A stretch of DNA of 64,000 bases from a virus. The stretch lies in IMG/VR virus record IMGVR_UViG_3300045988_159113. One strand, 5' to 3'. How positions within the stretch are numbered: the first letter of the stretch is position 1; every line of letters begins with the position of its first letter. Both the position numbers and the translations under genes were made by a program. The notes under the pieces are model-generated. The model did not search any database. It was not told the origin of the DNA and saw only the letters and a list, made by a program, of their open reading frames with translations. Of this stretch, positions 7,801-63,938 are shown piece by piece.

Positions 7801-10800
7801 GCGCATATTTACGCGCTGTTTACTGCTGATTAGTCGAAACTTTCCAGCAATTAGAAGCCTTTAATCGAGGAGCTTTCACTCCAAGTATCCCTAACTTGAG
7901 ATAAATACGTATTTGTTACCTGTAGGTTTCTGCGCCTTCTCTCCCATCATAGACAGAACAGTACGGAATACCTCCATACTGAGCTTGTTGTATGCATACT
8001 TGGAAGCGAAGCGCTCAACCTGAGGAATAATCAAAAATATTATCACATGCCGTTTATGCATGCCTCTCACACTTCTTATTTGTGTAAGTTTAGACTATAT
8101 CTTCATCCTTCGCGGATGGGTGCTGTTCGTGGGTTTCCCTAGTCGTTACACTTATCGCTCGGTATTCTCATCTCAGAGTTCACCGATTTAAGCACCTTTT
8201 CATTAATTTATCACTAAATTACGGGGCATTACTCTACCCTCACCTATATAAATCAAACTGTTATCTCTACGTCTCCATAGAGTTCAGACTATACCTTTAA
8301 CTCATTTTCTTATACTTCAAAATATACGGATCATTTACCATTGGTTTTCTCAATATGCGTATCTGTTCCTCTGTTAATTCTTTCGTGGAACTATACAACT
8401 TGACGAGATTTCCTTTTAGGTCATACTGCTCAACTTTCCGAGCAACCGGCGCGTTTGTTGCGATCCATTTATCCATTTTATCATAAGACCATTTATAGCC
8501 TCTGCATGCGCGGTTCATCTTTATCGCGCGAATGATCTTTCCTGTGCTGATGTTTGGCGTTCCCTTAGCTGCTTCTTTAATAGAATCAAAAGCTGCATCA
8601 AACTCACCTTTCAATGTGTACCGGTAAACAGGCACTGTAGTTGTCAATTCTATCGCTGACTTTTTACCAAGCACCTTTCGTATATCCTCAGATACACGCA
8701 TGAATCGGTATCCGCTACATGTTGAACGCATTGATACAGCACGAGCTATAGCATCTTTTGGTATATCAAGCTGAGCAGCAGCAGATGGGATATCACGGTA
8801 TGTATTGATAAGTATGCCATCCCTGTTGTACTGTGCAATAGCACCACGTGGCATGTTGGAATAAAGATCAACATCTATAGACTCATCAAAAGAGAGATAG
8901 ACATCTTTACAGTTTGTGCGTGTATTGATGCATATGATCACGTGTTCTTTCGATACATGCAAATCATCAGCTGCTTCATCAACGCTATCCCACTTTCCGA
9001 CATGACCACCAGAGAACGTGAACGCGTTGACTCTTTGTCTACTGCAAATGCTGGGAGATGCAATCGAGTTGTAGTTGTCGGTTCTCTTTATAAAATCCTC
9101 GTTGACAATCAACATATAGAAATCAGTTGCATCATTGATATTGTTAAATTCTTTTAACGTTATCCTCTTGAAAGCATTGATTCCATGACGCTGCACCGCA
9201 CTCTGAAGTTGTGTCTTGCTCTTGTTGTATGATTCCGGTAGATGTATATCTACACCATCGCCAAGATAACCATCAAACACTTCTGGATCATTCACCTTGT
9301 GAATACCTACGTAAATCTTGCCATTATCAAGATTAATTGTTTCAAATACTATAAATTTCATGAGTTATTCCCCGTTTCCGCTTTCGCGTATTATAAAATT
9401 ATCAGTCGTTGAACTAATACAAATCTTTACTTGTATTTAGCTGCTGGTTGTCCGTTAGAGTTTCCAGCAATTAAAGGAATCTATTTTTACTAATCTCGCA
9501 ATTAGCCGACCCATTTATATATAGGTCTGTTTGTGTCGGGATCGAAAATGGTAGGCTTACCATTGGCCACAATAAAAGTAGACTATATCATTAGTTTTCA
9601 CTATTTCCCGTTTCCGTCAAACTTATCCTGTACTAGGTAGTCGTTGAACGAATCAAAAGAAAACTTTTGATTTCGCTGCTGATTAGCTTGCCGCTTTCCA
9701 GCAATTAGAGAAATTTTTCGTGGACGTCAATCCATCCACGTTGCACTTGTTAAAGAGAAGCAATAATTCAATATGTTGCCATATTGTTTAGACTATATTT
9801 TGAGATCTTGATATCTCTGCGCTCTTTCACTACTTACTCTAAAAATAGATAGTCGTTGAACGTATCGCGATATATTTCGCGATTTCGCTGCTGATTGTCC
9901 TTTTAGGATTTTCCAGCAATTAAGCGCATTTTATAATGGCATCTCCTTCTTTTTAAAAAAAACTTCACGTCGATTCCATTATTTCTGACATACATGAAAG
10001 ACTCCATAAGGGCCTTCTCCTTCTTGTCTAATCTGTAAATTGTTTCTGACAACTTTCCGTTATCCTTACCCTGTCCGATAGAAATGAAAGTATCCTCATG
10101 TGCAGCATAGAGGCTAGAGAACGAATCATCACAACGGTGTGTGGTGATGTAGTTCCGCATCTTGCTGATATTCAATGTGTTAGCTTATAGTTTCCTATAA
10201 GATCAGACTATATCATTAGGTCATGAACCTAGTTTCCGTTTCTAAAAATACGGCTATTGCCTAGTCGTTGAACCAAATTTCGCACTTGCTAAATTTTGGC
10301 TGCTGATTATCCTTTTGGATTTCCCAGCAATTAGAAAACTTTTTTCTTTAGAAATGTCTAAAGGAGCAATATCTCACTCTGATACTTTACATACAATTTT
10401 GTTAATCAATATGTTTCCATATTGTTCAGATTATATCTTGGTTTTTCAAACCTATTCCGTTTTAAAAATTACGTCATATTGACTAATCGTTGAACATTAC
10501 GCGATAATTATCGCGTATTTGCTGCTGATTACCATTTTAAGGCTTCCAGCAATTAGAAATATTTTAAGAGGGCATATGTTGCATTTTCCCTCTTCATGCA
10601 TTTCGGGCATTGCATTGCTCAAGAACCTGGTAGTCATACCAAGCTGGCAACCTGACTTGTCGAGAACCGAACTGTAGTCGTTATCGACCAAGCGAACGAT
10701 CACCTTCCAGTAGTTATCACTAACGCGAACAGGACGTGCTACAACGAAGCACTGCTGACCTGTAGCGTCAATCTGGAAGATATCATACTTTTCATAGTAG

Positions 10801-12437
10801 CGCTCTTTGAATGCCATGGTGATCTCGCTACCGTTTGCGCCATCCTCAACGGGAACATCAGCGAACTCAATGCGCTTGATGTCATTGGTGCTAACCTCCC
10901 ACTCAAACAATTATGTTATCTTTATGTTGCCATAAAGTTCAGACTATATCATTTGCTATATTTAAATATAAAGTCGCCATGTTCTTTAATGCCTTTTAAA
11001 ATTCTAGAAGCAGATGCAGAATTCAAATTATATTTTTCTTTCATTACTTTTACACTATCTAAGATTTCTATAAGATTGCCACACTTATCATACACTTCTA
11101 TTTTTCTCATATGTGAATGTTTGTTTGGCATTTCCGAAATCTTTTCTAGAGATAAATAATAATCTTTATACCATCCGCAGTTGTCATTTATTGCAGCATT
11201 AATTTTTTTAAATGAATGCAATTTTATAGCATTCATTATTTCCTTACCAACAAATTCTCCTATAAATCCTGATCCAAATTTATATAAAAATATATGTGCA
11301 TTTTTAATTTGTGCTCTATTTTTAGGTATAAATTCATCGTACAAAGAATCAGAAACAAACATGTTTTTAATTTTTGTTTGGTTTCTTATTGCATTACTAA
11401 TAGATTGAGAAGTACATTTCAAATAATTTGCACATTCTTTTCTGGAACAAAAATAAGAAACTAGTTTACCGCTTGAATTATATAAATATGTAATTTTATA
11501 TATTTTTTGTGTAAACTTTTTAATATCTATTGTTTCTTCTCTACTCCATAAAGAATTTAAAAATATGGTTTTGTCTGTTATTGCCCAATTAAATCTGGAA
11601 TATTCAAACCCATAAAAATCACATGCATCTAATGTACTATCCCATTTTTTTAACAATTCACCATTCAAATCAAACTGATATAAAATTTTTGAATGCACTT
11701 TTGGACTTATACATTCTAGAGATCCCCCAATTCCACCAATAGCAATGTTGTATGTATAATCTTGTTTAATAAAATTAAAATCAACTATTTTGCGCTCTTT
11801 ATCAAAAGCTTCATTTTTATTGTCGTATATATATAATACAGAACGAATAAAAGATTTAGTTCCATATTTTTTTACAGCATATTGAAATGGTGTTTTTGGA
11901 TACATATAACTTGATGGCTTGTTTACATAAACACCACAACCGATATATCCATCAAAGATTTCTGGGTTTTCTGTTTTGTGTACTCCAACATAAATTCTAT
12001 TTATACCATTAATTTTGGATTTTATGTTTGTTGTTAAGTAAACTATATATTTCATAGCAATTCAGTTTTTCGACTATTTTTTTTAGTCTACGGCTTTCGC
12101 CTAGTCGTTGAACACTCCAGCCATCGCTGGCATGCTGCTGATTGTCCTTTTAGGATTTTCCAGCAATTTAAAGAATTTATTCATGTCGTATCACTACGAC
12201 CGTGTACTTAATTATTAAATACATTGAGTTGATGCTCTGATACTTATTCCCAGACTTGTTATCCTAGTAGAAAATGTTTCTCAGAGACTCGGTGAGGTAG
12301 GCTGCGGTGCAGTCCTCATACATACGGCTCACTACGCCGAAGAGCTCCGGCTTTGTACCAAGAATCTTGCTAAAAGACTCATAGGTTCTTGTACTGCCCA
12401 TTTCAGGGTTCAGATTTTTAAAAGTTGCAACTTGCAT
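4813..12437 (-). CDS. Putative major capsid protein gene split into about 12 exons by 11 group I introns
   Basis: ATG at 12437 (MQVATFKNLNPEMG...), just downstream of an acidic scaffold-like gene. Exon pieces such as FEWEVSTNDIK, NISKMRNYITTH, IIPQVERFASKY, GNERFWHSVQAELFDFLAHF, NTNDEKGYALCLD and YIQNEILGVGGKTG are separated by blocks carrying group I P/Q/R/S elements. Summed exons give about 480 aa. The capsid identity is by position only. Confidence 0.6.
4831..5755 (-). mobile_element. Group I intron 11 with a GIY-YIG/NUMOD3 homing-endonuclease ORF (different intron subtype); 5' boundary approximate
   Basis: R is CTAACGACTAA and S is GATATAGTCTGA. P9 is CTATAG-tgtgag-CTATAG. The 3' end ..ACAAATTG|ATC GCA GCT TTA TCT TGA gives a 5-codon last exon. 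The ORF sits near the 5' side of the intron. Confidence 0.6.
5061..5726 (-). CDS. GIY-YIG homing endonuclease with NUMOD3-like repeats
   Basis: Intact 221-aa ORF with N-terminus YTYMIYNTETNRYYIGV. Repeated HTEETKxKIS / SEETKIKIG motifs. It ends in TGA and contains no TAG. Confidence 0.8.
   Translation of the reverse strand: MNHYTYMIYNTETNRYYIGVRSCKCDICNDSYMGSSSIWTKSYIETNRYKLQKIIIKTFRTRKDANDYEVHLLKICEFDDFCINRYFGYTPDCSGTKQNKEWISKRKRFGVENGMFGKHHTEETKNILSQKLRGHYVSEETKIKIGLYHKNKIVSDATRSKISNLRKIARLIIDTETNKKYIMPINDFAKQNPNLNINANSMRKAYQDGYMYKKRYIIKKI
5876..7211 (-). mobile_element. Group I intron 10 with a GIY-YIG homing-endonuclease ORF
   Basis: P1 GGAGAU.G/AGTCTCC places the 5' splice site after ..GGC GGA GAT. 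P, Q, R (inside the ORF start) and S are present. P9 is TTACTG-ATAA-CAGTAA. The 3' end reads ..ATTTTTG|TACATC. The junction is ..FTLKGGD|YIQNEIL.. Confidence 0.75.
5927..7066 (-). CDS. GIY-YIG homing endonuclease
   Basis: Intact 379-aa ORF containing KKFIVYLTVNTQNNKIYIGVHKT. It has repeated YQFDLNGEF / VFRYDLNGNF modules, ends in TAA and contains no TAG. Confidence 0.8.
   Translation of the reverse strand: MKPMNNVQRLAFKSIDFYQKIKMENDIKKFIVYLTVNTQNNKIYIGVHKTNPNIFDYYYGNGIYSNMPSTYRKPKTNFGNAIKKYGFGKFKRYTIGIYDTEEEALLVEQLLVDNKFINRNDTYNQTTGGIHSLKFEIPIYQFDLNGEFIAKYKSVKIASESVGANTSSALISAYKTKTSYLNFLWSTDPEINLADFKITTFCKTVYKFDRYCNLINVFSSLSQAALDADVSSEQIKNAIYKQTAINKFYYSYNERISLHVDLQRIVFRYDLNGNFIDSDCIENFCERFSLTPLRLHKVASSGLCIRNFQWNFENPLKMHDITSRVGKGAKRKVGQYTKEGELVKVFESVKSCRKEFTNVGRCLSGKVDMAKGFVFKYIE
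7316..7512 (-). mobile_element. Group I intron 9 (no ORF, covarying P/Q)
   Basis: P1 is GGTU.G TAA-ttc-TTAGACC. P2 is GCAGC-GTGA-GCTGC. P AAATCCAGGAAAG covaries with Q AATCTGGAGC. The junction ..TAT GGT T|CT AAC ACA is in frame. Confidence 0.7.
7713..7900 (-). mobile_element. Group I intron 8 (no ORF)
   Basis: P1 TCTCAAG/CTTGGAG has a U.G pair. P2 is GGAGT-GAAA-GCTCC. P/Q/R/S are present. The junction ..GTA TTT AT|A TTT GGT restores the frame of ORF 7487-7672. Confidence 0.7.
8032..8235 (-). mobile_element. Group I intron 7 (no ORF, variant P/Q)
   Basis: A P1 U.G pair follows ..GAG GGT. P2 is ATTTA-GTGA-TAAAT. P AAATCGGTGAAC covaries with Q ATACCGAGC. R is GTAACGACTAG and S is GATATAGTCTAA. 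The 3' end reads ..ATTTTTG|ATTATT. Confidence 0.65.
8254..9522 (-). mobile_element. Group I intron 6 with a GIY-YIG homing-endonuclease ORF
   Basis: P1 GACC-U.G...GGGTC places the 5' splice site after ..AGA CCT. Elements seen: P TTTAATTGCTGGAAA, Q CAACCAGCAGC, R GTTCAACGACTGA, S GGTATAGTCTGA. The 3' end reads ..CAGTTTG|ATTTAT. Confidence 0.7.
8297..9361 (-). CDS. GIY-YIG homing endonuclease
   Basis: Intact 354-aa ORF with N-terminus KFIVFETINLDNGKIYVGIHKV. It has repeated DNA-binding modules, ends in TAA and contains no TAG. Confidence 0.8.
   Translation of the reverse strand: MKFIVFETINLDNGKIYVGIHKVNDPEVFDGYLGDGVDIHLPESYNKSKTQLQSAVQRHGINAFKRITLKEFNNINDATDFYMLIVNEDFIKRTDNYNSIASPSICSRQRVNAFTFSGGHVGKWDSVDEAADDLHVSKEHVIICINTRTNCKDVYLSFDESIDVDLYSNMPRGAIAQYNRDGILINTYRDIPSAAAQLDIPKDAIARAVSMRSTCSGYRFMRVSEDIRKVLGKKSAIELTTTVPVYRYTLKGEFDAAFDSIKEAAKGTPNISTGKIIRAIKMNRACRGYKWSYDKMDKWIATNAPVARKVEQYDLKGNLVKLYSSTKELTEEQIRILRKPMVNDPYILKYKKMS
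9568..9729 (-). mobile_element. Group I intron 5 (no ORF, about 162 nt); boundaries tentative
   Basis: P/Q/R/S elements are present and P6 is GAAATCAAAAG-tttt-CTTTTGATTC. The P1 candidate CGTGGA..TCCACG has two possible registers. The phase-0 junction gives ..SATWMD|ANGKPTIF.. Confidence 0.55.
9769..9965 (-). mobile_element. Group I intron 4 (no ORF); 5' boundary approximate
   Basis: P/Q/R/S elements are present. P9 AATATG-GCAA-CATATT is followed by G|AATTATTGC. Confidence 0.65.
10173..10376 (-). mobile_element. Group I intron 3 (no ORF); 5' boundary approximate
   Basis: P/Q/R/S elements are present (TCTAATTGCTGGGA, AATCAGCAGC, GTTCAACGACTA, GATATAGTCTGA). P9 is TTATAG-GAAA-CTATAA. The 3' end reads ..CACATTG|AATATC. 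Confidence 0.65.
10407..10595 (-). mobile_element. Group I intron 2 (no ORF); 5' boundary approximate
   Basis: Elements seen: P TCTAATTGCTGGAAG, Q AATCAGCAGC, R GTTCAACGATTA, S GATATAATCTGA. P9 AATATG-GAAA-CATATT is followed by G|ATTAAC. Confidence 0.65.
10908..12218 (-). mobile_element. Group I intron 1 with a GIY-YIG homing-endonuclease ORF
   Basis: P1 hairpin TGTAT|TTAAT-aat-ATTAAGTACA has a U.G pair at the splice site. Elements seen: P TAAATTGCTGGAAA, Q AATCAGCAGC, R GTTCAACGACTA, S GATATAGTCTGA, and P9 TTTATG-GCAA-CATAAA. Omega-G precedes TTTGAG. Both junctions are in phase 0 (..SINSMY|FEWEV..). Confidence 0.8.
10949..12055 (-). CDS. GIY-YIG homing endonuclease with repeated NUMOD/IENR-like DNA-binding modules
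   Basis: Intact 368-aa ORF. N-terminus KYIVYLTTN...RIYVGVHKT. Repeated YxFDLNGELxxxW/F modules. It lies between intron elements R and S, ends in TGA and contains no TAG. Confidence 0.8.
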   Translation of the reverse strand: MKYIVYLTTNIKSKINGINRIYVGVHKTENPEIFDGYIGCGVYVNKPSSYMYPKTPFQYAVKKYGTKSFIRSVLYIYDNKNEAFDKERKIVDFNFIKQDYTYNIAIGGIGGSLECISPKVHSKILYQFDLNGELLKKWDSTLDACDFYGFEYSRFNWAITDKTIFLNSLWSREETIDIKKFTQKIYKITYLYNSSGKLVSYFCSRKECANYLKCTSQSISNAIRNQTKIKNMFVSDSLYDEFIPKNRAQIKNAHIFLYKFGSGFIGEFVGKEIMNAIKLHSFKKINAAINDNCGWYKDYYLSLEKISEMPNKHSHMRKIEVYDKCGNLIEILDSVKVMKEKYNLNSASASRILKGIKEHGDFIFKYSK

Positions 12438-47027: not shown

Positions 47028-47045
47028 TCATTCGCTCATTACTAG

Positions 47046-47121
47046 TAGGGACGCCAGGATTCGAACCCGGTCCAAGAGGGTTAGAGCCTCCTGTGCAATG
47101 AACCACATACACCACATCCCT
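47046..47121 (-). tRNA. Amber-suppressor tRNA, anticodon CUA (reads UAG)
   Basis: Minus-strand sequence AGGGATG TG GTGT-atgtggttcatt-GCAC A GGAGG-CTCTAAC-CCTCT TGGA CCGGG-TTCGAAT-CCTGG CGTCCCT A. The fold has a 7-bp acceptor stem, a 4-bp D stem with GG in the loop, and a 5-bp anticodon stem. The anticodon loop has U33-CUA-A37, and the T-loop is canonical. CCA is not encoded. Confidence 0.85.
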
Positions 47122-54770: not shown

Positions 54771-54911
54771 TTTGTATACGTTAGTATATACCTGACGGTA
54801 TAAGCACGTCATTCGGTTCATTCCCGAATTAAAACAATAGAATGGCGCACTTTGAGTGGTTCAACGCAACAAGGCAACCACACAAGTTTAACCTTGTAAA
54901 AACAAAGAAAC

Positions 54912-55196
54912 ATGAAACAAGGACAGACTTTTGAGGTGGTTGGCGTCATAAAAAATGCCAGCCAACCTTATCTTGTGCTCTCTCTTGCCATAGGCAATGG
55001 AGAAACGCATGAAGTGGCATGCGTGCCATTCAACAAGTTTCTCCAATGTGAGAGACTTGGAGAGATTATTTCTAACGTTGATGGTCAGTGTACCATTGAT
55101 GAAATAGAAAAACTGATTGATAATGTGAGAGGTGAAAAACCTTTCACTCTTGCCGTAGCAATATACGGTGAAGTTGAGCATTACATTGGCTTCTAA
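54912..55196 (+). CDS. Small early-block protein (94 aa)
   Basis: Intact track ORF with an A-rich leader (AAAAACAAAGAAACATG) and a TAA stop. Confidence 0.65.
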   Translation: MKQGQTFEVVGVIKNASQPYLVLSLAIGNGETHEVACVPFNKFLQCERLGEIISNVDGQCTIDEIEKLIDNVRGEKPFTLAVAIYGEVEHYIGF

Positions 55197-56989: not shown

Positions 56990-57041
56990 AAAACGTCAAA
57001 AGAGTCATCTGTATAGTATATTCTAAAACGTTAAAATAGTC
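56990..57041 (+). promoter_or_regulatory. Two tandem early-cassette motif copies (56990-57006 and 57025-57041)
   Basis: AAAACGTCAAAAGAGTC and AAAACGTTAAAATAGTC, 35 nt apart, downstream of a hairpin at about 56938-56975. Confidence 0.5.
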
Positions 57042-57160
57042 CTAAAATCGTCTGTATTTTATTGACTTCGTCAATAAGCGTCCTGCCCTTTCGGGGTAGC
57101 CCTCAGGATTGCTTAATGTTGTACACCAATTAGGGGCTATTGGTAAAAATTCCTAACAAT

Positions 57161-57775
57161 ATGATACAAGGAGTTTTTGAAGGCGATGCCTTCGCAGCAG
57201 TGCTCAATGCTACGTTTGCGTTGAGCGCAACACGGCTTCCTGTCAACAAGCCGTTTTTCGTGGTTGGTAGTTCTATCGTTTCGCTCAAAAACGACAAGGG
57301 CGAGATGATAATGAACAGGGACGGAAACCCCATGCCGTTCCCCGTTCTCCTTATTCGCTTTGCGAAGAAAGGAGATAGCGCACCAACAAAATGCGCAGCC
57401 AACAAGACCCCAACAAAGGTACAACGCTTCCCCGCTGAGGTAGTTACCGCAACCATTCCCGCAGGGGAGGGAGTGGTCAACGAGACCTTGTTTCTGTCAA
57501 CCATTACGCGTGACGTGAGAGATGCGGTTGACGAGGCAAACCAGTTTGTGCGCATACAGCACACTGGTGTGGCTGCTGATGCGGCACGTGCAGCGCAGGC
57601 TGCTAACGACACGAACGAGAAGGCTCTTGTGCGCGTCTGCAAGGCTATTTATGCCATGCAAGACGAAGGCAAGTGTTGGGTGTTGAAACCCAACGACTGC
57701 GCCAAGTTGACAAGAGATGGCAGACGTTACCCTGCCATCTATGTCAACTTGGAGTCGGCAGCAATACCGACATAA
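57161..57775 (+). CDS. Early-block protein (204 aa) in a GC-richer island
   Basis: First ATG (MIQGVFEGDAF) of ORF 57140-57775. TAA stop. The antisense ORFs 57130-57642 are probably GC-driven shadows. Confidence 0.6.
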   Translation: MIQGVFEGDAFAAVLNATFALSATRLPVNKPFFVVGSSIVSLKNDKGEMIMNRDGNPMPFPVLLIRFAKKGDSAPTKCAANKTPTKVQRFPAEVVTATIPAGEGVVNETLFLSTITRDVRDAVDEANQFVRIQHTGVAADAARAAQAANDTNEKALVRVCKAIYAMQDEGKCWVLKPNDCAKLTRDGRRYPAIYVNLESAAIPT

Positions 57776-57800
57776 GCCGTACCTTTTCCCTATACTCGCA

Positions 57801-57833
57801 CCCCTTTGCTCCTATGTGGGCAAGGGGTGCTTG
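57801..57833 (+). terminator. Intrinsic terminator
   Basis: GCACCCCTTTGC-tcctatgtg-GGCAAGGGGTGC. Confidence 0.55.
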
Positions 57834-57882
57834 CCTATCACACACACACACACCACGCGAAACTAACATGTCTCCGACATGT

Positions 57883-57898
57883 AAACGTCAAAATAGTC
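57883..57898 (+). promoter_or_regulatory. Early-cassette motif copy (AAACGTCAAAATAGTC)
   Basis: Same context as the other copies, 129 nt upstream of ATG 58027. Confidence 0.5.
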
Positions 57899-58026
57899 AA
57901 GTGTATTCGGCTGCCTGTCCTTGACGGTATCTGGTGCTCCGTCGTTAAATGTATTAGCACCACAAAGACGGTATATGGCGTTCCGTCTATAAATGTATTA
58001 ACGCCACAAATTAAAAGATTACGATC

Positions 58027-58584
58027 ATGATCGATCCAGAAGTCGAGCTCACTAGAGCTCTTGAGAACCCTGACAATGTGAAGGGTTCCTCTTTCACCGG
58101 CGCAATGCGCAGCGGTGAGATGTTAAACACCGTAGATGGCGATGTCATCATTATGCCTGCTTCTCTCGAGGAGCTTGATGGCAAGATCATCACGCACAAG
58201 AACTTGCGCAATGCGCAGAGTATCATGTGCCGTGCCATCAACAACGGTGTTGAGAAAGTTGTGGAATTTTGGCCTAACTCTTTGTGCCGTGTTGGCCAGG
58301 AGTATACCAAGGCTGACTTCGAGGGTGCTATTGCTCACCGCACTGGCAACACATTCCCCAACGAGGGCGAAGTAGTGGATACAGTCAAGAACTGTCCCAC
58401 TGTTGCTAAGGCTATGGAGCAGCTGTATGGTAAGGCCATCAAATTCACCAAGCTCAAGGACTACACAACAGTCCGTTTCGGTACAAACGACCTTCGTGAT
58501 ACCAACAGTTGGACCATTGAGTTTGTTCCGGTGCCTGGTGCTGCTCCTACTCGTCCATCAGGTGGTAGTCGTTCACGCCGTTGA
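58027..58584 (+). CDS. Early-block protein (185 aa) with an Arg/Ser-rich tail
   Basis: Intact track ORF with a TGA stop. C-terminus ..GAAPTRPSGGSRSRR. Confidence 0.65.
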   Translation: MIDPEVELTRALENPDNVKGSSFTGAMRSGEMLNTVDGDVIIMPASLEELDGKIITHKNLRNAQSIMCRAINNGVEKVVEFWPNSLCRVGQEYTKADFEGAIAHRTGNTFPNEGEVVDTVKNCPTVAKAMEQLYGKAIKFTKLKDYTTVRFGTNDLRDTNSWTIEFVPVPGAAPTRPSGGSRSRR

Positions 58585-58596
58585 GAACTGTATTCG

Positions 58597-58633
58597 GGAG
58601 GCTATGCAGTGAGAACTGCATAGTCCTCTTTGA
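58597..58633 (+). terminator. Intrinsic terminator
   Basis: GAGGCTATGCAG-tgagaa-CTGCATAGTCCTC followed by TTTG. Confidence 0.6.
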
Positions 58634-58642
58634 TGGTACAAA

Positions 58643-58707
58643 AATCCCTGTCAGGCAGAATAGCTGTCCCGTAAATGTATACGGGTGGTTTCTACTTGAC
58701 AGGGATT
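58643..58707 (+). ncRNA. Y-shaped, tRNA-like structure lacking a T-arm (tentative)
   Basis: An 11-bp closing stem AATCCCTGTCA/TGACAGGGATT encloses a D-arm-like GGCA-gaatagc-TGTC and a hairpin CCCGTA-aatg..-TACGGG. Confidence 0.35.
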
Positions 58708-58908
58708 GTATTCTCAAATTCGTACGTCGCCATGGTTGAGTATCAGCACTTTAGTAACGGTGGAATAATTTATTGCACTGGTTCTGGTCTCGAATGTAAT
58801 GATGCGGAGTTGGTGCGTGTTGCCTTACGTCGTGAATACGACAGTACAGGTTTAGCGTACCAACTTCGTATTTTGGAAATTGCGTCCCAACTTGGGATAC
58901 ACTTATAG
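58675..58908 (+). CDS. Possible small ORF (77 aa) overlapping the structured-RNA region
   Basis: Track ORF only. There is no A-rich leader. It ends in TAG, which would be the only TAG terminator in the window. Confidence 0.25.
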   Translation: MYTGGFYLTGIVFSNSYVAMVEYQHFSNGGIIYCTGSGLECNDAELVRVALRREYDSTGLAYQLRILEIASQLGIHL

Positions 58909-58951
58909 CCTGTGTTATGGAAAACGACATGTTCGAGTCATGTCACAGGCA
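58885..58951 (+). ncRNA. Degenerate copy of the hairpin plus tRNA-like minihelix element
   Basis: The hairpin TCCCA-act-TGGGA is followed by TA. The minihelix is GCCTGTG ..12 nt.. ACATG-TTCGAGT-CATGT CACAGGC A. Confidence 0.5.
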
Positions 58952-58972
58952 CTTTTGTATCATATTGTCATA

Positions 58973-59047
58973 ATCACACGGTCTGTGAAGATAGTGTGGT
59001 TTTAATTCCCTGAGTGGTATAACCAGGTTCGAATCCTGGCAGGGGAA
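58973..59047 (+). ncRNA. Hairpin plus tRNA-like acceptor/T-arm minihelix element, copy E0
   Basis: The hairpin is ATCACAC GG TCT-GTGA-AGA TA GTGTGGT. The minihelix is TTCCCTG ..10 nt.. CCAGG-TTCGAAT-CCTGG CAGGGGA A. Confidence 0.65.
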
Positions 59048-59075
59048 CGAATTTTAAAAAATTCAAAATAAAGTA

Positions 59076-59240
59076 ATGCAATACATCGCTTACCTCTGGA
59101 ACGGTAGGACTCATGACAAGTATGCCATGTTGTCTTACGTTGGAGAGGAAGAGTTGGATGCTTTCAAAAAGAGAGTGAAGTCATGCTATCCCTATACTCA
59201 GGGATGGTATGCTGAATTCTCTGTTTTTGAGAGAATCTAA
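59076..59240 (+). CDS. Small protein (54 aa; too short to appear in the track)
   Basis: ATG at 59076: MQYIAYLWNGRTHDKYAMLSYVGEEELDAFKKRVKSCYPYTQGWYAEFSVFERI, then TAA at 59238. Confidence 0.4.
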   Translation: MQYIAYLWNGRTHDKYAMLSYVGEEELDAFKKRVKSCYPYTQGWYAEFSVFERI

Positions 59241-59318
59241 CTCGACTTGGGTTATGCTTCCCAAGGTGTAGACAAAAAGCAACCTTTCAACAAAAAATAA
59301 ACAAAAAAAACAAAGAAG

Positions 59319-59699
59319 ATGAAAAATTCGAAAATTCATGATTGCAAGATTGTTGATGATGTATCTATACACAACTCTATTCTTAGAGAGTCTCGTATAG
59401 GAGGCATTTCCAACATCGTTAATTCGACAGTCTGCAATTGTATTATTAACGATTGTGTGATTAGAAATTGTACTGTGAAGGCTTCTGTCCTTCGCAATGC
59501 AATAATAAATGGCAAAGAATGCTGTGTTAGCTTGAAATTAGGCCAAATGGCATGTGTGCCAAAAGCATACAAGAGTTATGCAGTAACGATAGACAACGAC
59601 CGTATAAACATGCTCTTTATTTCCGACAAGAACGTGTGGGAATTTGATGTGTGTTCACCAGAAGAGCTGCTAATTGCGCTCAAATTCCATCGTGTATGA
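59319..59699 (+). CDS. Hexapeptide-repeat (left-handed beta-helix-like) protein, paralog of 61688-62116
   Basis: Intact ORF. Six-residue periodicity IHDCKI VDDVSI HNSILR ESRIGG ISNIVN STVCNC IINDCV IRNCTV. The C-terminal ..NVWEFDV..ELLIALKFH matches ..GVWAFSK..FLDFIKDY in the paralog. Confidence 0.65.
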   Translation: MKNSKIHDCKIVDDVSIHNSILRESRIGGISNIVNSTVCNCIINDCVIRNCTVKASVLRNAIINGKECCVSLKLGQMACVPKAYKSYAVTIDNDRINMLFISDKNVWEFDVCSPEELLIALKFHRV

Positions 59700-59923
59700 T
59701 ATGGTCCACTTCCGATGACTCCAAACTCCTCGAGTTGTGGAGTCATCACTACACTGTCAATGCTATCTGCTCAATATTGGGCAGAAGCAAAAGCAGCGTA
59801 TATAAACGCATAGAGAGGTTAAAAACAAACAAAAAAAACAAAGATGAACACAAACGAATTTCTTGGCAAAGTGCTTCCAAGAACTGCTATGTCCAAAGAG
59901 GAGATGGCAAAGACCGTCTCTGA
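59696..59923 (+). CDS. Small Myb/SANT-like HTH protein (75 aa)
   Basis: Start is an ATGA overlap. Sequence MIWSTSDDSKLLELWSHHYTVNAICSILGRSKSSVYKRIERL. The 3' part overlaps the next ORF. Confidence 0.45.
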   Translation: MIWSTSDDSKLLELWSHHYTVNAICSILGRSKSSVYKRIERLKTNKKNKDEHKRISWQSASKNCYVQRGDGKDRL

Positions 59924-60047
59924 TGCGAGTGAAGACTCGCTATTCCGCGATGTCGAGAAGTCAGCCAGAATGATGGGTGACAACTCCGGCATCTGTGGAA
60001 TGTTGAGCTCTGAGGAGGTTTCCGAAACTGCTTCGCGCCTCTTCTAA
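59844..60047 (+). CDS. Small acidic protein (67 aa)
   Basis: Track ORF. The leader AAACAAAAAAAACAAAGATG is nearly identical to the leader of 59319. Confidence 0.55.
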   Translation: MNTNEFLGKVLPRTAMSKEEMAKTVSDASEDSLFRDVEKSARMMGDNSGICGMLSSEEVSETASRLF

Positions 60048-60100
60048 TCCTATAAGCCCTGCCGTGTATTACGGCGGGGCAACCTTTAACATTAAGAAAC

Positions 60101-60319
60101 ATGAATAAGATCAAAAAGGCCATCAGGAGCCTTAATCCTGTTATTCGCACCGCCATAATTTTGGTGGTAGCGTTTATTGCCGCTATGCTTAGTGGCTTCT
60201 TCTTTGGGCACTATCTAGGTAACTCGTCGCCCATCAACTTCTTTGTATTGGTTGTATTTGCAACCTTTGTAATAGTTGGTGTTTATGTTCACCTTATTGA
60301 AGATAGCGATGATGAGTAA
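60101..60319 (+). CDS. Small membrane protein (72 aa)
   Basis: Track ORF with two hydrophobic segments and an acidic tail. Confidence 0.6.
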   Translation: MNKIKKAIRSLNPVIRTAIILVVAFIAAMLSGFFFGHYLGNSSPINFFVLVVFATFVIVGVYVHLIEDSDDE

Positions 60320-60500
60320 AACATACCAAGCCCTGATCAAAATGATCATCGAGGGCAAGACTGGCGAGGAGTATAAAAAGCTACTCGCTGGTTTAGATGA
60401 GAGCGAGAGAAAAGAGATAAAGGAGTATGAGAAGAAGTTCAAGGAGACTAAACTTGCACAAAAGGCTGCCGAGAATTTCTTTAATGTATTCGGAGTATAA
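60309..60500 (+). CDS. Small Lys/Glu-rich protein (63 aa)
   Basis: First ATG of ORF 60276-60500. It overlaps the previous stop. Confidence 0.5.
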   Translation: MMSKTYQALIKMIIEGKTGEEYKKLLAGLDESERKEIKEYEKKFKETKLAQKAAENFFNVFGV

Positions 60501-60513
60501 AAAAGATAGAGAT

Positions 60514-60750
60514 ATGAAAAGTAAGATAATAACCTGGTGGCATCAGTGTGGTGCCTTCATTACCATCCTGCTTGCTTACGCCGTAGCAACAGGGTCTGCG
60601 ATATACGGCGTAGAGATAGCCAGAAAGTACAATGATATCTTCTGGTTGGTGTTCGCCATTATGGTTGGGCTCTTGATTTCCCTGTTTATAGGGATTGTAT
60701 ACCAAGAGTTCACTATTGAGGAACTTTTAAAGGATGATGACAATGACTAA
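60514..60750 (+). CDS. Small membrane protein (78 aa)
   Basis: Internal ATG (MKSKIITWWHQCGAF) of ORF 60427-60750. Two TM segments and an acidic tail. Confidence 0.55.
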   Translation: MKSKIITWWHQCGAFITILLAYAVATGSAIYGVEIARKYNDIFWLVFAIMVGLLISLFIGIVYQEFTIEELLKDDDND

Positions 60751-61096
60751 TAAGGAAATAGCCGACCGTATCAATTCGGCGATGCTCCCAGACGTGGAGT
60801 TGTCTCCGAGTTCTTTTCGGGCTACACTCATTGAGTGTGGCCTGAAATATAGCAACATGACCGCGTACATTATCCGCCAGTGTTCAACTTGTTTTGAGGA
60901 AAGACAGGTCGGAAATAACAACAAGCGGATTCGTCGAGTTCGACCTGTGACAGCTGAGGTCATCAAGAAAACCTACGAGCTGAAATCATGTCACCGTACA
61001 AAAGCGGTGAAACTTGAAGAAAAGGAGCTTCTCGAAGATCAGCGAGCAATCGCTCGTTTGAAAAAGAGAGGCTATCTCGTTTTTAAACAACTTTGA
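60734..61096 (+). CDS. Basic protein (120 aa), possibly DNA-binding
   Basis: Track ORF with a TGA stop. Confidence 0.55.
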   Translation: MMTMTNKEIADRINSAMLPDVELSPSSFRATLIECGLKYSNMTAYIIRQCSTCFEERQVGNNNKRIRRVRPVTAEVIKKTYELKSCHRTKAVKLEEKELLEDQRAIARLKKRGYLVFKQL

Positions 61097-61134
61097 CACT
61101 TTGTCGTTTTTAGTTATATTTTGTTGAAAGGATA

Positions 61135-61210
61135 CCTACACGGTTCGTGAGAATAGTGTGGGTTTATTCTATGCTGTATGGAGTAAGTGGTTCGAATCTA
61201 CACATAGGAA
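61135..61210 (+). ncRNA. Hairpin plus tRNA-like minihelix element, copy E1
   Basis: The hairpin is CCTACAC GG TTC-GTGA-GAA TA GTGTGGG. The minihelix is TTCTATG ..12 nt.. AGTGG-TTCGAAT-CTACA CATAGGA A, followed by CAAG. Confidence 0.65.
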
Positions 61211-61264
61211 CAAGATTTGCAAGCATACGATTATTCATTATTTGATCTTTTTTTATTGGGATGT

Positions 61265-61294
61265 TGTGGCATCACTCGTGAGAGCCATGCCACA
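61265..61294 (+). ncRNA. Solo GUGA-capped hairpin of the same family (no minihelix)
   Basis: TGTGGCAT CA CTC-GTGA-GAG CC ATGCCACA. Confidence 0.5.
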
Positions 61295-61315
61295 TATGTG
61301 TTTTTCATGGTTGTA

Positions 61316-61383
61316 TTGATACCGTCCGTGAGGATAGTATCAATTTTTTTACCTTGCGCAGGGTTCGACTCCCTACGCAAGGA
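61316..61383 (+). ncRNA. Hairpin plus tRNA-like minihelix element, copy E2
   Basis: The hairpin is TTGATAC CG TCC-GTGA-GGA TA GTATCAA, followed by T7. The minihelix is CCTTGCG C AGGG-TTCGACT-CCCT A CGCAAGG A, followed by CAAG. Confidence 0.65.
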
Positions 61384-61426
61384 CAAGATTTTGTTCTTGT
61401 TGATTCATAATTGTGAATGTATTGTC

Positions 61427-61496
61427 TCAACGCAGTCCGTGAGGATAGCGTTGATTTCCATAATGGTTTTTCGAGGTTCGATTCCTCGTAATGGAA
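61427..61496 (+). ncRNA. Hairpin plus tRNA-like minihelix element, copy E3
   Basis: The hairpin is TCAACGC AG TCC-GTGA-GGA TA GCGTTGA. The minihelix is TCCATAA ..8 nt.. CGAGG-TTCGATT-CCTCG TAATGGA A, followed by CACG and T6. Confidence 0.65.
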
Positions 61497-61526
61497 CACG
61501 TTTTTTACTTCTTTTTTAGACAGTTC

Positions 61527-61598
61527 CCAATGTGGTTCGTGAGAATAGCATTGGTTTTCCATAATGGTTTTTGTAGGGTTCGATTCCCTATAATGGAA
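61527..61598 (+). ncRNA. Hairpin plus tRNA-like minihelix element, copy E4
   Basis: The hairpin is CCAATGT GG TTC-GTGA-GAA TA GCATTGG. The minihelix is TCCATAA ..9 nt.. TAGGG-TTCGATT-CCCTA TAATGGA A, followed by CAAG. It lies exactly 100 nt after E3. Confidence 0.65.
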
Positions 61599-61609
61599 CA
61601 AGTGTTTTT

Positions 61610-61648
61610 CATGTTTCTTCCCCTACCTTGTTGCGTAATGCAACAGGT
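61610..61648 (+). terminator. Intrinsic terminator closing the RNA cluster
   Basis: CCCCTACCTTGTTGC-gtaat-GCAACAGGTGGGG followed by TTTTG. Confidence 0.55.
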
Positions 61649-61687
61649 GGGGGTTTTGTATTGATCACTAAACAAAACAAAGATAAA

Positions 61688-62116
61688 ATGGCTAAGATTA
61701 TTAACACAAAAGTCAGCGAAAAGGCTGACTTTAAAATAGAGGATGGCGTGATACGCGACTCTTCTATTAGCGACTGGTCAAAGGTGCATATCCACGACAT
61801 GAGTGAATTGAAAAATGTAAAGATTTATGGAGATGTTGATATAAAGCATTCGACTATTGAGAGTTGCGAACTCATCAACTGCTCCGTGAAAAACTCAACA
61901 ATTCGCAATATCGATATCAATAATGATTATTGTGTTGAGACTATCACGGACAATGAGATCTACATTCCAGCTGGATTTTTCAACTGTGAAGTTATCATAA
62001 ATGAAAAACTTGTAACTGCAAAGTTCCATATATATTCTGGTGTGTGGGCTTTCAGCAAGCACAACTTCCTTGATTTCATCAAGGACTACTACAAACTACA
62101 AGGAGGTGCTCATTGA
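61688..62116 (+). CDS. Hexapeptide-repeat (beta-helix-like) protein, paralog of 59319-59699
   Basis: First ATG (MAKIINTKVSEK) of ORF 61628-62116. It contains STIESCELINCSVKNSTIRNIDINN and ends in TGA. Confidence 0.6.
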   Translation: MAKIINTKVSEKADFKIEDGVIRDSSISDWSKVHIHDMSELKNVKIYGDVDIKHSTIESCELINCSVKNSTIRNIDINNDYCVETITDNEIYIPAGFFNCEVIINEKLVTAKFHIYSGVWAFSKHNFLDFIKDYYKLQGGAH

Positions 62117-62140
62117 GCGCCTCCTAAAAACAAAGAAGAG

Positions 62141-62803
62141 ATGAAAGAGGGATATTTTATTTATAACCCATCCACGATTCTAAAAGGAACAATCGAAGAA
62201 AAGGTGTTCCGGATAGAAGCGGGAAACACCAATGTGTGCTGTGGTCATATACTAGTCAATCCGCGATTTATAAGTAGCATGTATTATAGATATTATTATA
62301 TAATGTCTGTAAAATGCAACTATAAAGGTCTCAGTTTTCGTAGATCATTTTGTAGACCGGTTGAAGAGGTTTATGATAATCTAGATGATTTGATGTCTGA
62401 AAATCTAAACAAGAAGCCTAATCTGAAATGTATAGATGAGTATTGGGTGAAGAAGGCGGTAAAAAAGGCCAATCTTCAGAAAGATGGCTTCACACTGAAC
62501 CAAAACTCTAATATTGTGCCTGTCCACATGGATATGCCTATCATTAAATATGAACCTGTACTTGTAGATATCGCAACTCCAGGAGACATTTGCAAAAATA
62601 TAATAACAGTTTACCGTGGCAACTACAAAGTTGAGGGATTGTATGTAACTGATGATTTCGAAGAGCAGGCTAAATATAGAGCCCAGAGTGTATTTTTCCC
62701 ATCTTATGGTTTTATAGGCCAGGAAAAGGTGTTCTTTACAATTGAAGATGCTATAGAGGCAAAGAAAAAGCGTTTTAAGGTTAAGGATGTTTTAGAACTT
62801 TAA
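62141..62803 (+). CDS. Hypothetical protein (220 aa)
   Basis: Intact track ORF with an A-rich leader and a TAA stop. Confidence 0.65.
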   Translation: MKEGYFIYNPSTILKGTIEEKVFRIEAGNTNVCCGHILVNPRFISSMYYRYYYIMSVKCNYKGLSFRRSFCRPVEEVYDNLDDLMSENLNKKPNLKCIDEYWVKKAVKKANLQKDGFTLNQNSNIVPVHMDMPIIKYEPVLVDIATPGDICKNIITVYRGNYKVEGLYVTDDFEEQAKYRAQSVFFPSYGFIGQEKVFFTIEDAIEAKKKRFKVKDVLEL

Positions 62804-62850
62804 CAAGAGCTCTTGATGAGTTTTTGGAGAAGTACTGGAAGTGAAAAATT

Positions 62851-62926
62851 TGGTAGGGGTGTGTAACATTTTTGGTAGGGGTATGTGAAAAATTTGGTAG
62901 GGGTACCGGCAAAAAGTGGTAGGGGT
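62851..62926. repeat. Four direct TGGTAGGGGT repeats at exactly 22-bp spacing (iteron-like)
   Basis: Copies lie at 62851, 62873, 62895 and 62917. Each is preceded by an A/T tract. The array lies between convergent genes, next to the 3' end of 62951-63730. Confidence 0.7.
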
Positions 62927-62950
62927 TCATCCTGCCACTTTTTGCTTTTA

Positions 62951-63730
62951 TCACAATAACACATTCGCGAAGTCCTGGTTTTGCCGAATACCGTTCTCGT
63001 TATTGAGGTAATCTTTATTGATAGCCTTTCTGAGCAACGCATTCTCGCGAACTAGGGCTTCGTATTGTTCACGCATCTTACGGATAACGTCTTGATTTTG
63101 AGCTTTGATTTCCAAAAGCTGCTTCTTCAAATCTTCGATATCCTCCGTGTTCTTCTCTATCTGCTCTTCATGCTTTTTGAGCAAGAATACGATAGCCTGA
63201 CCGTAAGCTCTAATGTCATATACTTTTAAAGGTCTACGATCTCCTCCGTATTCAACATAATCTGGCACAGATTGATTGACACACGTGAGGTAGCCTTTAT
63301 TACGCAATGATGTGTTGTAAGAAGCAATGCTACGCCTTGACAATCCTATGTGGTCTGCAAGCTCTTTGTCTGTCATAGATATCTTGCCTGTCTGGCCATC
63401 ATCAAGACGCATGTATTGCTGTATCATTGCAAGATAACCCTTTTCCTCTATACTGAGATTTGGGTTATCCAAAAAGTCATCACTAAACCCCTGAAATGTC
63501 TTGTACTCGTTAAAGTGGTAAATGTTGCGATTATTGCGGCCTTTCGAGATTGCAATATATCCCGCCTTTTCCAAACGATCTACAGCTTCCAGTATGTACT
63601 TGCGGCTTAGGTGTAACTTTTCAGCGATAGTAGCAATTGATACAAACGTCTCGTGAGTTTCCCAGTTCTCATATCTCCTAAGTGTCAGATAGACCACCAC
63701 ATCCTTTGGTTTTATGATATTCGTAAGCAT
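62951..63730 (-). CDS. Double winged-helix protein with a C-terminal coiled coil (replication-initiator- or regulator-like)
   Basis: Intact 259-aa ORF with two wHTH-like segments (SIATIAEKLHLSRKYILEAVDRLEKAGYI and DKELADHIGLSRRSIASYNTSLRNKGYL). It is flanked by repeat arrays on both sides. Confidence 0.55.
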   Translation of the reverse strand: MLTNIIKPKDVVVYLTLRRYENWETHETFVSIATIAEKLHLSRKYILEAVDRLEKAGYIAISKGRNNRNIYHFNEYKTFQGFSDDFLDNPNLSIEEKGYLAMIQQYMRLDDGQTGKISMTDKELADHIGLSRRSIASYNTSLRNKGYLTCVNQSVPDYVEYGGDRRPLKVYDIRAYGQAIVFLLKKHEEQIEKNTEDIEDLKKQLLEIKAQNQDVIRKMREQYEALVRENALLRKAINKDYLNNENGIRQNQDFANVLL

Positions 63731-63852: not shown

Positions 63853-63938
63853 GGGGGTGTGCAGAAACAGAAACGCAGGTGTGCAAAAATGTGCAGGGGG
63901 GTGTGCAGAAATAGAAACGCCGGTGTGCAAAAATGTTA
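63853..63938. repeat. Two tandem ~43-bp repeats, each containing GGTGTGCA twice
   Basis: GGGGGTGTGCAGAAACAGAAACGCAGGTGTGCAAAAATGT and GGGGGGTGTGCAGAAATAGAAACGCCGGTGTGCAAAAATGT lie upstream of 62951-63730. Confidence 0.65.

Follow-up and report, generated by a model that had tools for sequence, protein, structure and literature searches.

Phage RNA units that mimic part of a tRNA and their beta-solenoid gene neighbours: probably an inherited gene order rather than an RNA-protein machine

Small RNAs that imitate part of a tRNA have been described as transfer-messenger RNA (tmRNA, SsrA), mascRNA/menRNA and YrlA, and tandem RNA units followed by a protein gene are known from tRNA arrays and from type III toxin-antitoxin (TA) systems. 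Here we analyse a locus that resembles both kinds of system, located at positions 58643-62116 of a 64,000-nt stretch (the window) of IMG/VR record IMGVR_UViG_3300045988_159113, which belongs to a gut phage of about 200 kb. Two clusters of RNA units, each unit of about 80 nt and composed of a 5' hairpin, a short linker and a tRNA-like domain without an anticodon arm, are followed here by the genes of two predicted beta-solenoid proteins, termed A and B; clusters and genes together sit in the plus-strand early block adjoining the probable replication origin. A sequence-only reading of this DNA had proposed a duplicated module that encodes a functional RNA-protein pair. According to our analysis, the adjacency of RNA and solenoid genes probably reflects inherited gene order, with shared transcription at most, and not an RNA-protein machine. 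The RNA class, for which Rfam has no entry, is a more interesting object than its pairing with the protein.

As in tmRNA, an acceptor stem, a T arm and a D-like loop with GG are combined in the phage units with a free 3' end, while a D stem and an anticodon arm are lacking. However, the phage units contain no mRNA-like open reading frame (ORF), no pseudoknots and no G3:U70 pair (absent from the acceptor stems of all parsed units); they are multi-copy and phage-borne, they carry an unrelated 5' GNRA hairpin, and a tmRNA search with ARAGORN was negative. mascRNA and menRNA are small tRNA mimics inside longer transcripts, with the acceptor/T-arm geometry required by RNase P and RNase Z. Cleavage of the phage units, for which we infer a comparable processing, would likewise also set the 3' end of the upstream RNA. 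The two are eukaryotic, though, and keep a shortened anticodon arm, and the Rfam model RF01684 does not match the phage units. YrlA, too, mimics a tRNA without decoding and has conserved T and D elements, and a Mycobacterium smegmatis form of it undergoes RNase P cleavage and CCA addition (bioRxiv 10.1101/312249). In its architecture, YrlA is a permuted tRNA in which the acceptor stem-loop is closed and the anticodon stem opens into the Ro-binding helix, whereas the phage units have an open acceptor stem, no anticodon stem and no match to the Rfam model.

Regarding layout, phage tRNA arrays and the E. coli thrU-tyrU-glyT-thrT-tufB operon share with the present locus the tandem, independently folding units of about 80 nt, the single promoter and the protein gene downstream, here probably co-transcribed; on the other hand, the present units cannot decode, and a terminator separates array and protein gene. 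In running from a promoter through tandem RNA units and a terminator to a protein gene, the locus also follows the order of type III TA systems (ToxIN, CptIN, TenpIN). There, repeats are short and near-identical, each ending at the cleavage site of the toxin; the differences are that our units are diverged, unequal in length and tRNA-like, that the protein is a predicted solenoid and not an endoribonuclease of the ToxN/AbiQ/CptN type, and that co-occurrence of RNA and protein is limited here to one lineage.

The structured-RNA clusters noticed in the sequence-only reading proved to be real. For an initial sampling, IMG/VR was scanned with an exact pattern, which gave 64 contigs, and 33 diverse units were aligned with MAFFT. 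RNAalifold recovered the 5' hairpin and the T arm with compensatory changes; the acceptor stem has five to seven of its seven positions paired in all 33 units, and six or seven in 32 of them, despite unrelated sequences. The 5' hairpin comprises 12 bp, with a variable outer stem, a single mismatch and a 4-bp inner stem GUYC/GRAU capped by GUGA; its apex follows the nearly invariant consensus G-GUYC-GUGA-GRAU-A-G. The tRNA-like half consists of an acceptor stem of 6-7 bp, an optional D-like loop or small arm with GG, and the T arm GG-UUCGANU-CC, corresponding to the string GGTTCGA.TCC that is nearly invariant across units. As is typical of tRNAs, the acceptor stem is stacked on a 5-bp T stem with a GGUUCGAAUCC-type T loop. 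After the acceptor stem, position 73 is mostly A and C74 is largely conserved; CCA is not encoded. The 14-nt hairpin apex is almost unchanged across phages of 40-65% G+C, while the acceptor sequence is free to vary, which argues for a specific ligand of the apex rather than a mere role in stability. The idea that the apex mimics the sarcin-ricin loop was rejected because, where the sheared A-G pair would have to be, the bases covary as C-G/U-A.

Searching with a covariance model of 21 base pairs, we detected five full units in the window (56-77 bits, E 1e-11 to 1e-17), besides which two partial elements are present, and 107 units across all loci gathered at that stage; the genuine tRNA of the window scores just 20 bits against the model. 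In the alignment made with this model, which was fitted to it and therefore leans towards it, 91.1% of the cells are paired (85.5% in the acceptor stem, 95.1% in the T arm), compared with 64.9% for shuffled and 37-44% for partner-slid controls; the independent MAFFT/RNAalifold analysis and a manual parse agree. Compensatory double changes occur at 18 of the 21 model pairs, so that all three helices are supported by covariation. Folding of the window units as single sequences gave the same two-domain structure (z -2.6 to -6.1), and G+C-rich relatives fold into a three-way junction with a small D-like arm.

In the region 58500-62200, Rfam 15, searched at the gathering threshold and at E<10, returned only a 20-bit FopS-like stretch and noise, and ARAGORN called neither a tRNA nor a tmRNA at the RNA clusters. 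The FopS-like stretch concerns the motif GUGUUUUUCAUG, found at 61298-61311 and 61601-61613 (+), after a hairpin-only element and after the last RNA unit; with 20 bits, far under the gathering score, it aligns to the opening 14 nt of the Rfam model of these Bacteroidetes sRNAs. At four gathered loci from elsewhere (L011 7252-7337, L047 6236-6329, L018 11980-12072 and L039 8757-8849), ARAGORN reports a tRNA-Lys(UUU) or tRNA-Ala(AGC) of 86-94 nt. By covariance model and folds these are ordinary hairpin-plus-minihelix units, and we rejected the labels; automatic annotation may conceal the RNA family as odd tRNAs. No description of the family was found in a literature search, although thousands of unnamed phage RNA candidates have been published that may include it (Fremin et al. 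2023, PMC10690425).

Altogether, 86 distinct units were collected from 51 IMG/VR contigs of several phage types, namely phages of 80-100 kb with an NAD-dependent ligase, temperate phages with CI/Ant/Sak4, and the present 200-kb lineage. In the temperate phages, Ant and Sak4 flank the units within the early operon, and a CI-like repressor lies opposite. The co-occurrence check went against the proposed functional RNA-protein pair: only one of the 51 RNA-bearing contigs, the 197-kb IMGVR_UViG_3300045988_155098, carries the protein, and the other 50 have the RNA without it. A protein scan of the whole IMG/VR collection returned the same single contig, and a hidden Markov model (HMM) of the protein family, run against the six-frame ORFs of every fetched locus, found matches restricted to the 200-kb lineage. 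Outside this lineage, the ORFs flanking the RNA units have no relationship to A, to B or to the neighbours of A and B. Since the RNA is widespread in phages that lack the solenoid protein, it does not need this protein.

Beyond IMG/VR, megablast of 57000-63000 and blastn of one unit against GenBank phages gave no match. A pattern scan of genome contigs produced mostly chance matches, with real units in just three contigs of human gut metagenome-assembled genomes (MAGs): arrays of four and five units and one single unit (L161 3333-3916, L174 205-1199 and L178 1847-1934). Their bins (Acutalibacteraceae, [Ruminococcus] lactaris and Azospirillum sp. CAG:239) provide no reliable host; the context in L161 resembles a prophage early region with HTH repressor-like, GNAT-like and SSB-like genes. 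TAnnTTTG, the promoter motif of Bacteroidota, shows no enrichment in the window (67 matches, 66 expected).

Gene order within the 200-kb lineage was compared at 14 distinct loci from pig and human gut assemblies, 13 of them assessable for an A-like gene. Such a gene comes after the cluster-1 unit in eight loci (window, L069, L070, L071, L194, L196, L198 and L199), and five (L040, L065, L068, L195 and L197) keep the cluster-1 RNA without it. A family gene lies 80-85 nt behind the last cluster-2 unit, past the terminator, at five loci; three of them (window, L071 and L197) have B in this place, and the other two (L065 and L070) a paralog of 192-219 aa, C. Other genes split cluster 2 from the first family gene in seven relatives (L068, L069, L194-L196, L198 and L199). 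These are a 485-aa ORF in L068 and L199, small ORFs over about 1.7 kb in L198, and opposite-strand RepL/rep genes in L069 and L194-L196, joined by a 490-aa ORF in L194 and L196. L066 encodes a B protein identical to that of L065, and the 6.4 kb upstream hold only a hairpin-only remnant and no array. In the relatives, as many as four genes of the family (types C, B, D and E) stand in a row, mostly without preceding RNA, paralogs C and D there coming after other genes and not after RNA.

At the DNA level, the two regions of the window share only the RNA-unit core, with no collinear similarity of RNA, spacer and gene, which does not fit the proposed duplication as a module. Of the conserved RNA-then-protein synteny that had been proposed, the recurrent junction of array, terminator and family gene holds within the lineage, but beyond this junction the synteny is loose, interrupted, and lacks the A-like gene in the five loci named above. 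Because of the variable gene order, the paralogs without RNA and the missing DNA collinearity, we interpret the locus as a tandemly diversifying gene family beside RNA loci in a rearrangement-prone region near the origin, not as a duplicated and conserved module.

Some observations weigh against this interpretation. In 13 of the 14 lineage loci with a family gene, RNA units are found within about 4 kb; because of this co-presence, and because five loci have a family gene behind the same terminator, a functional RNA-protein link specific to this lineage is still conceivable. Also, the loci from other lineages extend over only about 10 kb (median), and the protein scan of the whole collection relied on two short peptide patterns; a highly divergent relative of the protein, encoded in another part of those genomes, could have escaped detection.

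Within the window, all elements of the locus are on the plus strand. Cluster 1 includes an orphan tRNA-like minihelix without the conserved 5' hairpin (58908-58953; minimum free energy (MFE) fold -17.1 kcal/mol, z -3.3). It has a 7-bp acceptor stem, a ..UGG.. loop and the T arm GACAUG-UUCGAGU-CAUGUC, followed by A-C, and is almost unchanged in seven aligned relatives, with one A/G difference. Its first base is the final base of the stop codon of a 77-aa ORF (58675-58908). The full unit of this cluster, at 58969-59054 (76.8 bits, E 5e-17), is composed of the GUGA-tetraloop 5' hairpin, a U-rich linker and the acceptor/T-arm domain, ending with A73-C74, and its MFE fold is that of the model (z -3.2). 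All three ORFs given in the sequence-only reading exist. The first, of 54 aa (59076-59240), lies between the cluster-1 RNA and gene A; ORFs of 53-54 aa occupy the equivalent site in L069 and L070, and no known family was found for it in Pfam or PHROGs. Gene A (59319-59699), with the leader AAACAAAGAAGATG upstream, encodes 126 aa with nine Cys and an isoelectric point (pI) of 8.4.

Upstream of cluster 1, we noted a terminator-like hairpin directly 3' of a 185-aa gene (58596-58632, +; -22 kcal/mol, z -6.7) and a second one of 79 nt (58634-58712, +; -37.5 kcal/mol, z -6.9), within which the 77-aa ORF begins. From these hairpins through cluster 1 (58585-59060), the entire sequence is near-identical in seven relatives. 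The 77-aa ORF, which is uncalled in some relatives, shows many third-position synonymous differences among them and probably represents a genuine small gene.

Cluster 2 forms an array complete in itself, in which a promoter precedes four full units and one hairpin-only element and a terminator comes last. A sigma-70-type promoter-like site, TTGACA-N16-TATATT (61093-61122; 11 of 12 consensus positions), ends about 10 nt before the first unit (61131-61217; 63.9 bits, supported by its fold). The hairpin-only element, without a tRNA-like domain, follows at 61266-61296 (-15.9 kcal/mol) and has an 8-bp outer stem, a CUC-GUGA-GAG apex and a U run behind it. In the second unit (61312-61390; 55.8 bits, fold z -6.1), the T arm is stacked straight on the acceptor stem without a D-like loop. 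The third (61423-61503; 65.2 bits) and fourth (61523-61605; 64.7 bits) are 77% identical, which suggests a recent tandem duplication. The terminator that had been proposed behind this cluster is likewise real: its stem at 61620-61653 (-24 kcal/mol, z -5.5), followed by UUUUGUAUU, closes the array. Gene B (61688-62116) encodes 142 aa from its ATG, with a pI of 5.6 and the same architecture as A.

The promoter is found in relatives as TTGACA-N18-TATAAT (L065 and L071), in near-consensus form (L040 and L070) or with a degenerate -35 element (L068 and L069). The array terminator is conserved in L065, L070 and L071, and has an upper stem of different sequence in L068. Between the terminator stem and the ATG of B there are 34 nt, made up of only the U tract and the A-rich leader ACTAAACAAAACAAAGATAAAATG, so that B, like its C-type equivalents, has no room for a promoter of its own. 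This junction of terminator, leader and ATG is kept whichever paralog follows. The leader motif AAACAAAGA(N0-8)ATG, an A-rich initiation region without a Shine-Dalgarno sequence, occurs four times in the window (0.24 expected), at 54900-54914, 59308-59321, 61675-61690 and 62128-62143 (+), in each case at the start of a plus-strand early gene; A, B and the gene after B are three of these. The first family gene is probably expressed from the array promoter by read-through of the array terminator, and because B lacks space for a promoter, such co-transcription is the likeliest link between RNA and protein. In a similar manner, tufB of E. coli shares its transcript with four tRNA genes located upstream of it. 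Co-transcription does not require that RNA and protein interact physically.

That A and B are paralogs was borne out. BLASTP aligns them with 29% identity over 112 aa (E 2e-7), and an HMM of the B subfamily alone matches A with 33.4 bits, while the best of 1000 shuffles matched in composition reaches 8.3 bits; with query and target exchanged, the values are 20.9 versus 11.5 bits. In hhalign (95.5% probability, E 1.4e-8), the match spans the non-repeat C-terminal part, and the C-terminal segment described as common to both proteins contains a W/F motif that is invariant across the family. By these comparisons, A and B are true but distant paralogs. AlphaFold (AF2) predicts all-beta solenoids with a C-terminal sheet and helix for A (pLDDT 89.3, pTM 0.76) and B (pLDDT 78.9). 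The sequence-only reading was thus right in expecting a beta-helix-like region, but not in its six-residue period: hydrophobic autocorrelation in A peaks at lag 5 (z +3.6, compared with +0.9 at lag 6), B is mixed 5/6, and the repeat register of the family is [S/C/A]-x-[I/V/L]-x-[N/D].

Searches of A and B against Pfam, PHROGs, PADLOC and PDB sequence profiles gave nothing significant, and Foldseek with both models against PDB and BFVD found nothing at E<=1e-3. Among its weak matches, the top-ranking ones are beta-helices of pentapeptide-repeat proteins (SV2 luminal domain, MfpA, QnrB1, AlbG and alr1298; TM 0.2-0.43). Among 28 family members, none reaches the Pfam pentapeptide gathering score (PF00805/PF13599); below this threshold, Pentapeptide_4 is seen in nine (best E 0.0016) and Pentapeptide_3 in one (E 6.6e-4), and hexapeptide-type models in at most two (E 0.17 or worse). 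The period of about five and these weak matches point to a pentapeptide-type beta-helix rather than a hexapeptide acyltransferase fold. With MfpA, Qnr, AlbG and the SV2 luminal domain, the family shares the five-residue period, S/C/A at i-2 and I/V/L at i; it differs in having N/D at i+2 instead of i-1, in its roughly 10-14 repeats followed by a distinct C-terminal module, and in the lack of a significant sequence or fold match. Because the family is not uniformly acidic (pI 5.6-9.4), a role as a DNA mimic is a mere possibility. The hexapeptide or acyltransferase label of the sequence-only reading did not survive. Although left-handed beta-helix (LbH) acyltransferases (PF00132), whose repeat [LIV]-[GAED]-X2-[STAV]-X has a period of 6, are beta-solenoids rich in I/V/N as well, A and B have no Pfam Hexapep match, the top PDB matches include no acyltransferase, and the viral fold search ranked high only one LbH-type entry, the eIF-2B gamma subunit. 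A distinct protein of 192-256 aa, encoded 5-7 kb downstream in relatives (L065 16480-17058), has faint Hexapep/GMPPB_C matches and is possibly a different, genuine LbH protein. The solenoid family itself comprises 23 clusters in an exhaustive HMM search of 1.84 billion (1.84e9) representatives and 89 clusters in a collection of 5.8 billion proteins, all of them unnamed and without Pfam domains.

Several other features of the window and its relatives were recorded. Iterons with a 22-bp spacing at 62841-62926 and 63853-63936 (four copies of ..TTTGGTAGGGGT; GGTGTGCA-type repeats) flank a replication initiator gene of the DnaD/HTH_36 type (62951-63730, -), and this region next to the RNA array probably represents a replication origin. 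The relatives have RepL plus one or two DnaD/HTH_36-type initiators in the same neighbourhood, in one case with an IS605 OrfB/TnpB-like gene beside the initiator (L194 10600-11850). A tRNA-Lys(UUU) is found a few kb downstream of the family genes in L065 (13282-13356), L066 (9662-9736) and L067 (12548-12622). The sole tRNA of the window according to ARAGORN, called tRNA-Pyl, has a CUA anticodon (47045-47121, -; Rfam tRNA 47 bits). When read with the standard code, the block on the minus strand at about 13-48 kb shows only short ORFs, and the plus-strand early block at 50-64 kb reads normally; these short ORFs and the CUA-anticodon tRNA suggest reassignment of the TAG stop codon in late genes. 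Six Rfam group I intron matches (54-89 bits) fall within 3.3 kb (7316-10633, -), interleaved with ORFs of the PHROG 314 homing endonuclease family (5061-5726, 5927-7066, 8297-9361 and 10949-12055), and the host gene in this region appears to be heavily intron-split.

Three other explanations for the locus compete with inherited gene order. In the first, the array would serve the downstream mRNA in cis, either as a leader that undergoes processing or as punctuation: the early transcript would be cut at the tRNA-like domains by RNase P and by 3' processing, the GNRA hairpins would stabilise the resulting ends, and dose or stability of whatever gene comes next, here A and B, would be controlled in this way. 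Precedents exist in the processing of T7 early mRNA by RNase III and in 3'-end formation of MALAT1/mascRNA by RNase P. Such a role would account for the single units that in other lineages sit between early-operon ORFs, 25-150 nt from the next one, for the minihelix that begins on the last base of a stop codon, and for a gene B without its own promoter. However, arrays of four to six units that contain no ORFs and are framed by a promoter of their own and a strong terminator resemble genes for RNA products, the conservation of the apex over very different G+C contents speaks for a specific ligand and not for stability alone, and the downstream gene differs between relatives. We therefore regard cis action as an unlikely explanation.

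According to the second, the locus would be a lineage-specific type III TA-like system, in which processed units bind or neutralise the solenoid protein and the terminator sets the ratio of RNA to protein. The ToxIN-type layout, with a promoterless protein gene behind the terminator, is indeed kept in the window, L065, L070, L071 and L197, and in the window both A and B are preceded by RNA units. On the other hand, the units of the window are not near-identical repeats but diverged sequences of 79-87 nt with 58-77% identity, and the predicted beta-solenoid matches neither RNases of the ToxN/AbiQ type nor PADLOC or Pfam entries. Furthermore, the RNA does without the protein in 50 of 51 contigs, L066 has an identical B without an array, and paralogs C and D come without RNA of their own. 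We consider such a system quite improbable. Finally, that the units are just divergent tRNA genes or pseudogenes with irrelevant neighbours can hardly be correct, since the canonical T arm, 7-bp acceptor stem and GG in the D-like region, together with the few units mislabelled by ARAGORN elsewhere, are outweighed by an anticodon arm in none of the 86 distinct sequences, an extra conserved 5' hairpin that covaries, no Rfam tRNA match at E<10 and no ARAGORN call at the clusters, and a strong purifying selection on structure that rules out pseudogenes.

Under inherited gene order, the preferred explanation, RNA and solenoid genes would have become neighbours in a recombination-prone early region. 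RNase P, the CCA-adding enzyme, EF-Tu and 3'-processing enzymes recognise a tRNA by its stack of acceptor stem and T arm with a D-like GG. Maturation of the RNA would involve host RNase P, acting where the acceptor stem begins on its 5' side, together with 3' trimming and CCA addition, and the RNA would then act in trans as a non-decoding tRNA mimic or decoy, independently of the solenoid proteins. This is our best guess for the RNA, with mRNA punctuation or end stabilisation in cis as the main alternative. For the solenoid proteins, a function as early host-takeover or anti-defence binders is a guess from predicted fold and location. A combination of both lines, in which an undescribed phage class of tRNA mimics (e.g. 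decoys that engage host factors or immune effectors recognising tRNAs by their acceptor stem, 3' end or elbow) was recruited in the 200-kb lineage into a type III TA-like or ribonucleoprotein arrangement with the solenoids, seems rather doubtful.

As a new RNA-protein system, the duplicated module is not worth following. What emerges is a well-supported class of tRNA-like RNAs, which at least three kinds of gut phage carry in their early regions, singly or in arrays, and, beside it, a small, fast-diversifying solenoid family confined to one jumbo-phage lineage; fast-diversifying families confined to a lineage are typical of host-takeover genes. If it is true that the RNA serves as a decoy or sponge for tRNA-directed host enzymes, it would represent a new kind of RNA-based counter-defence.

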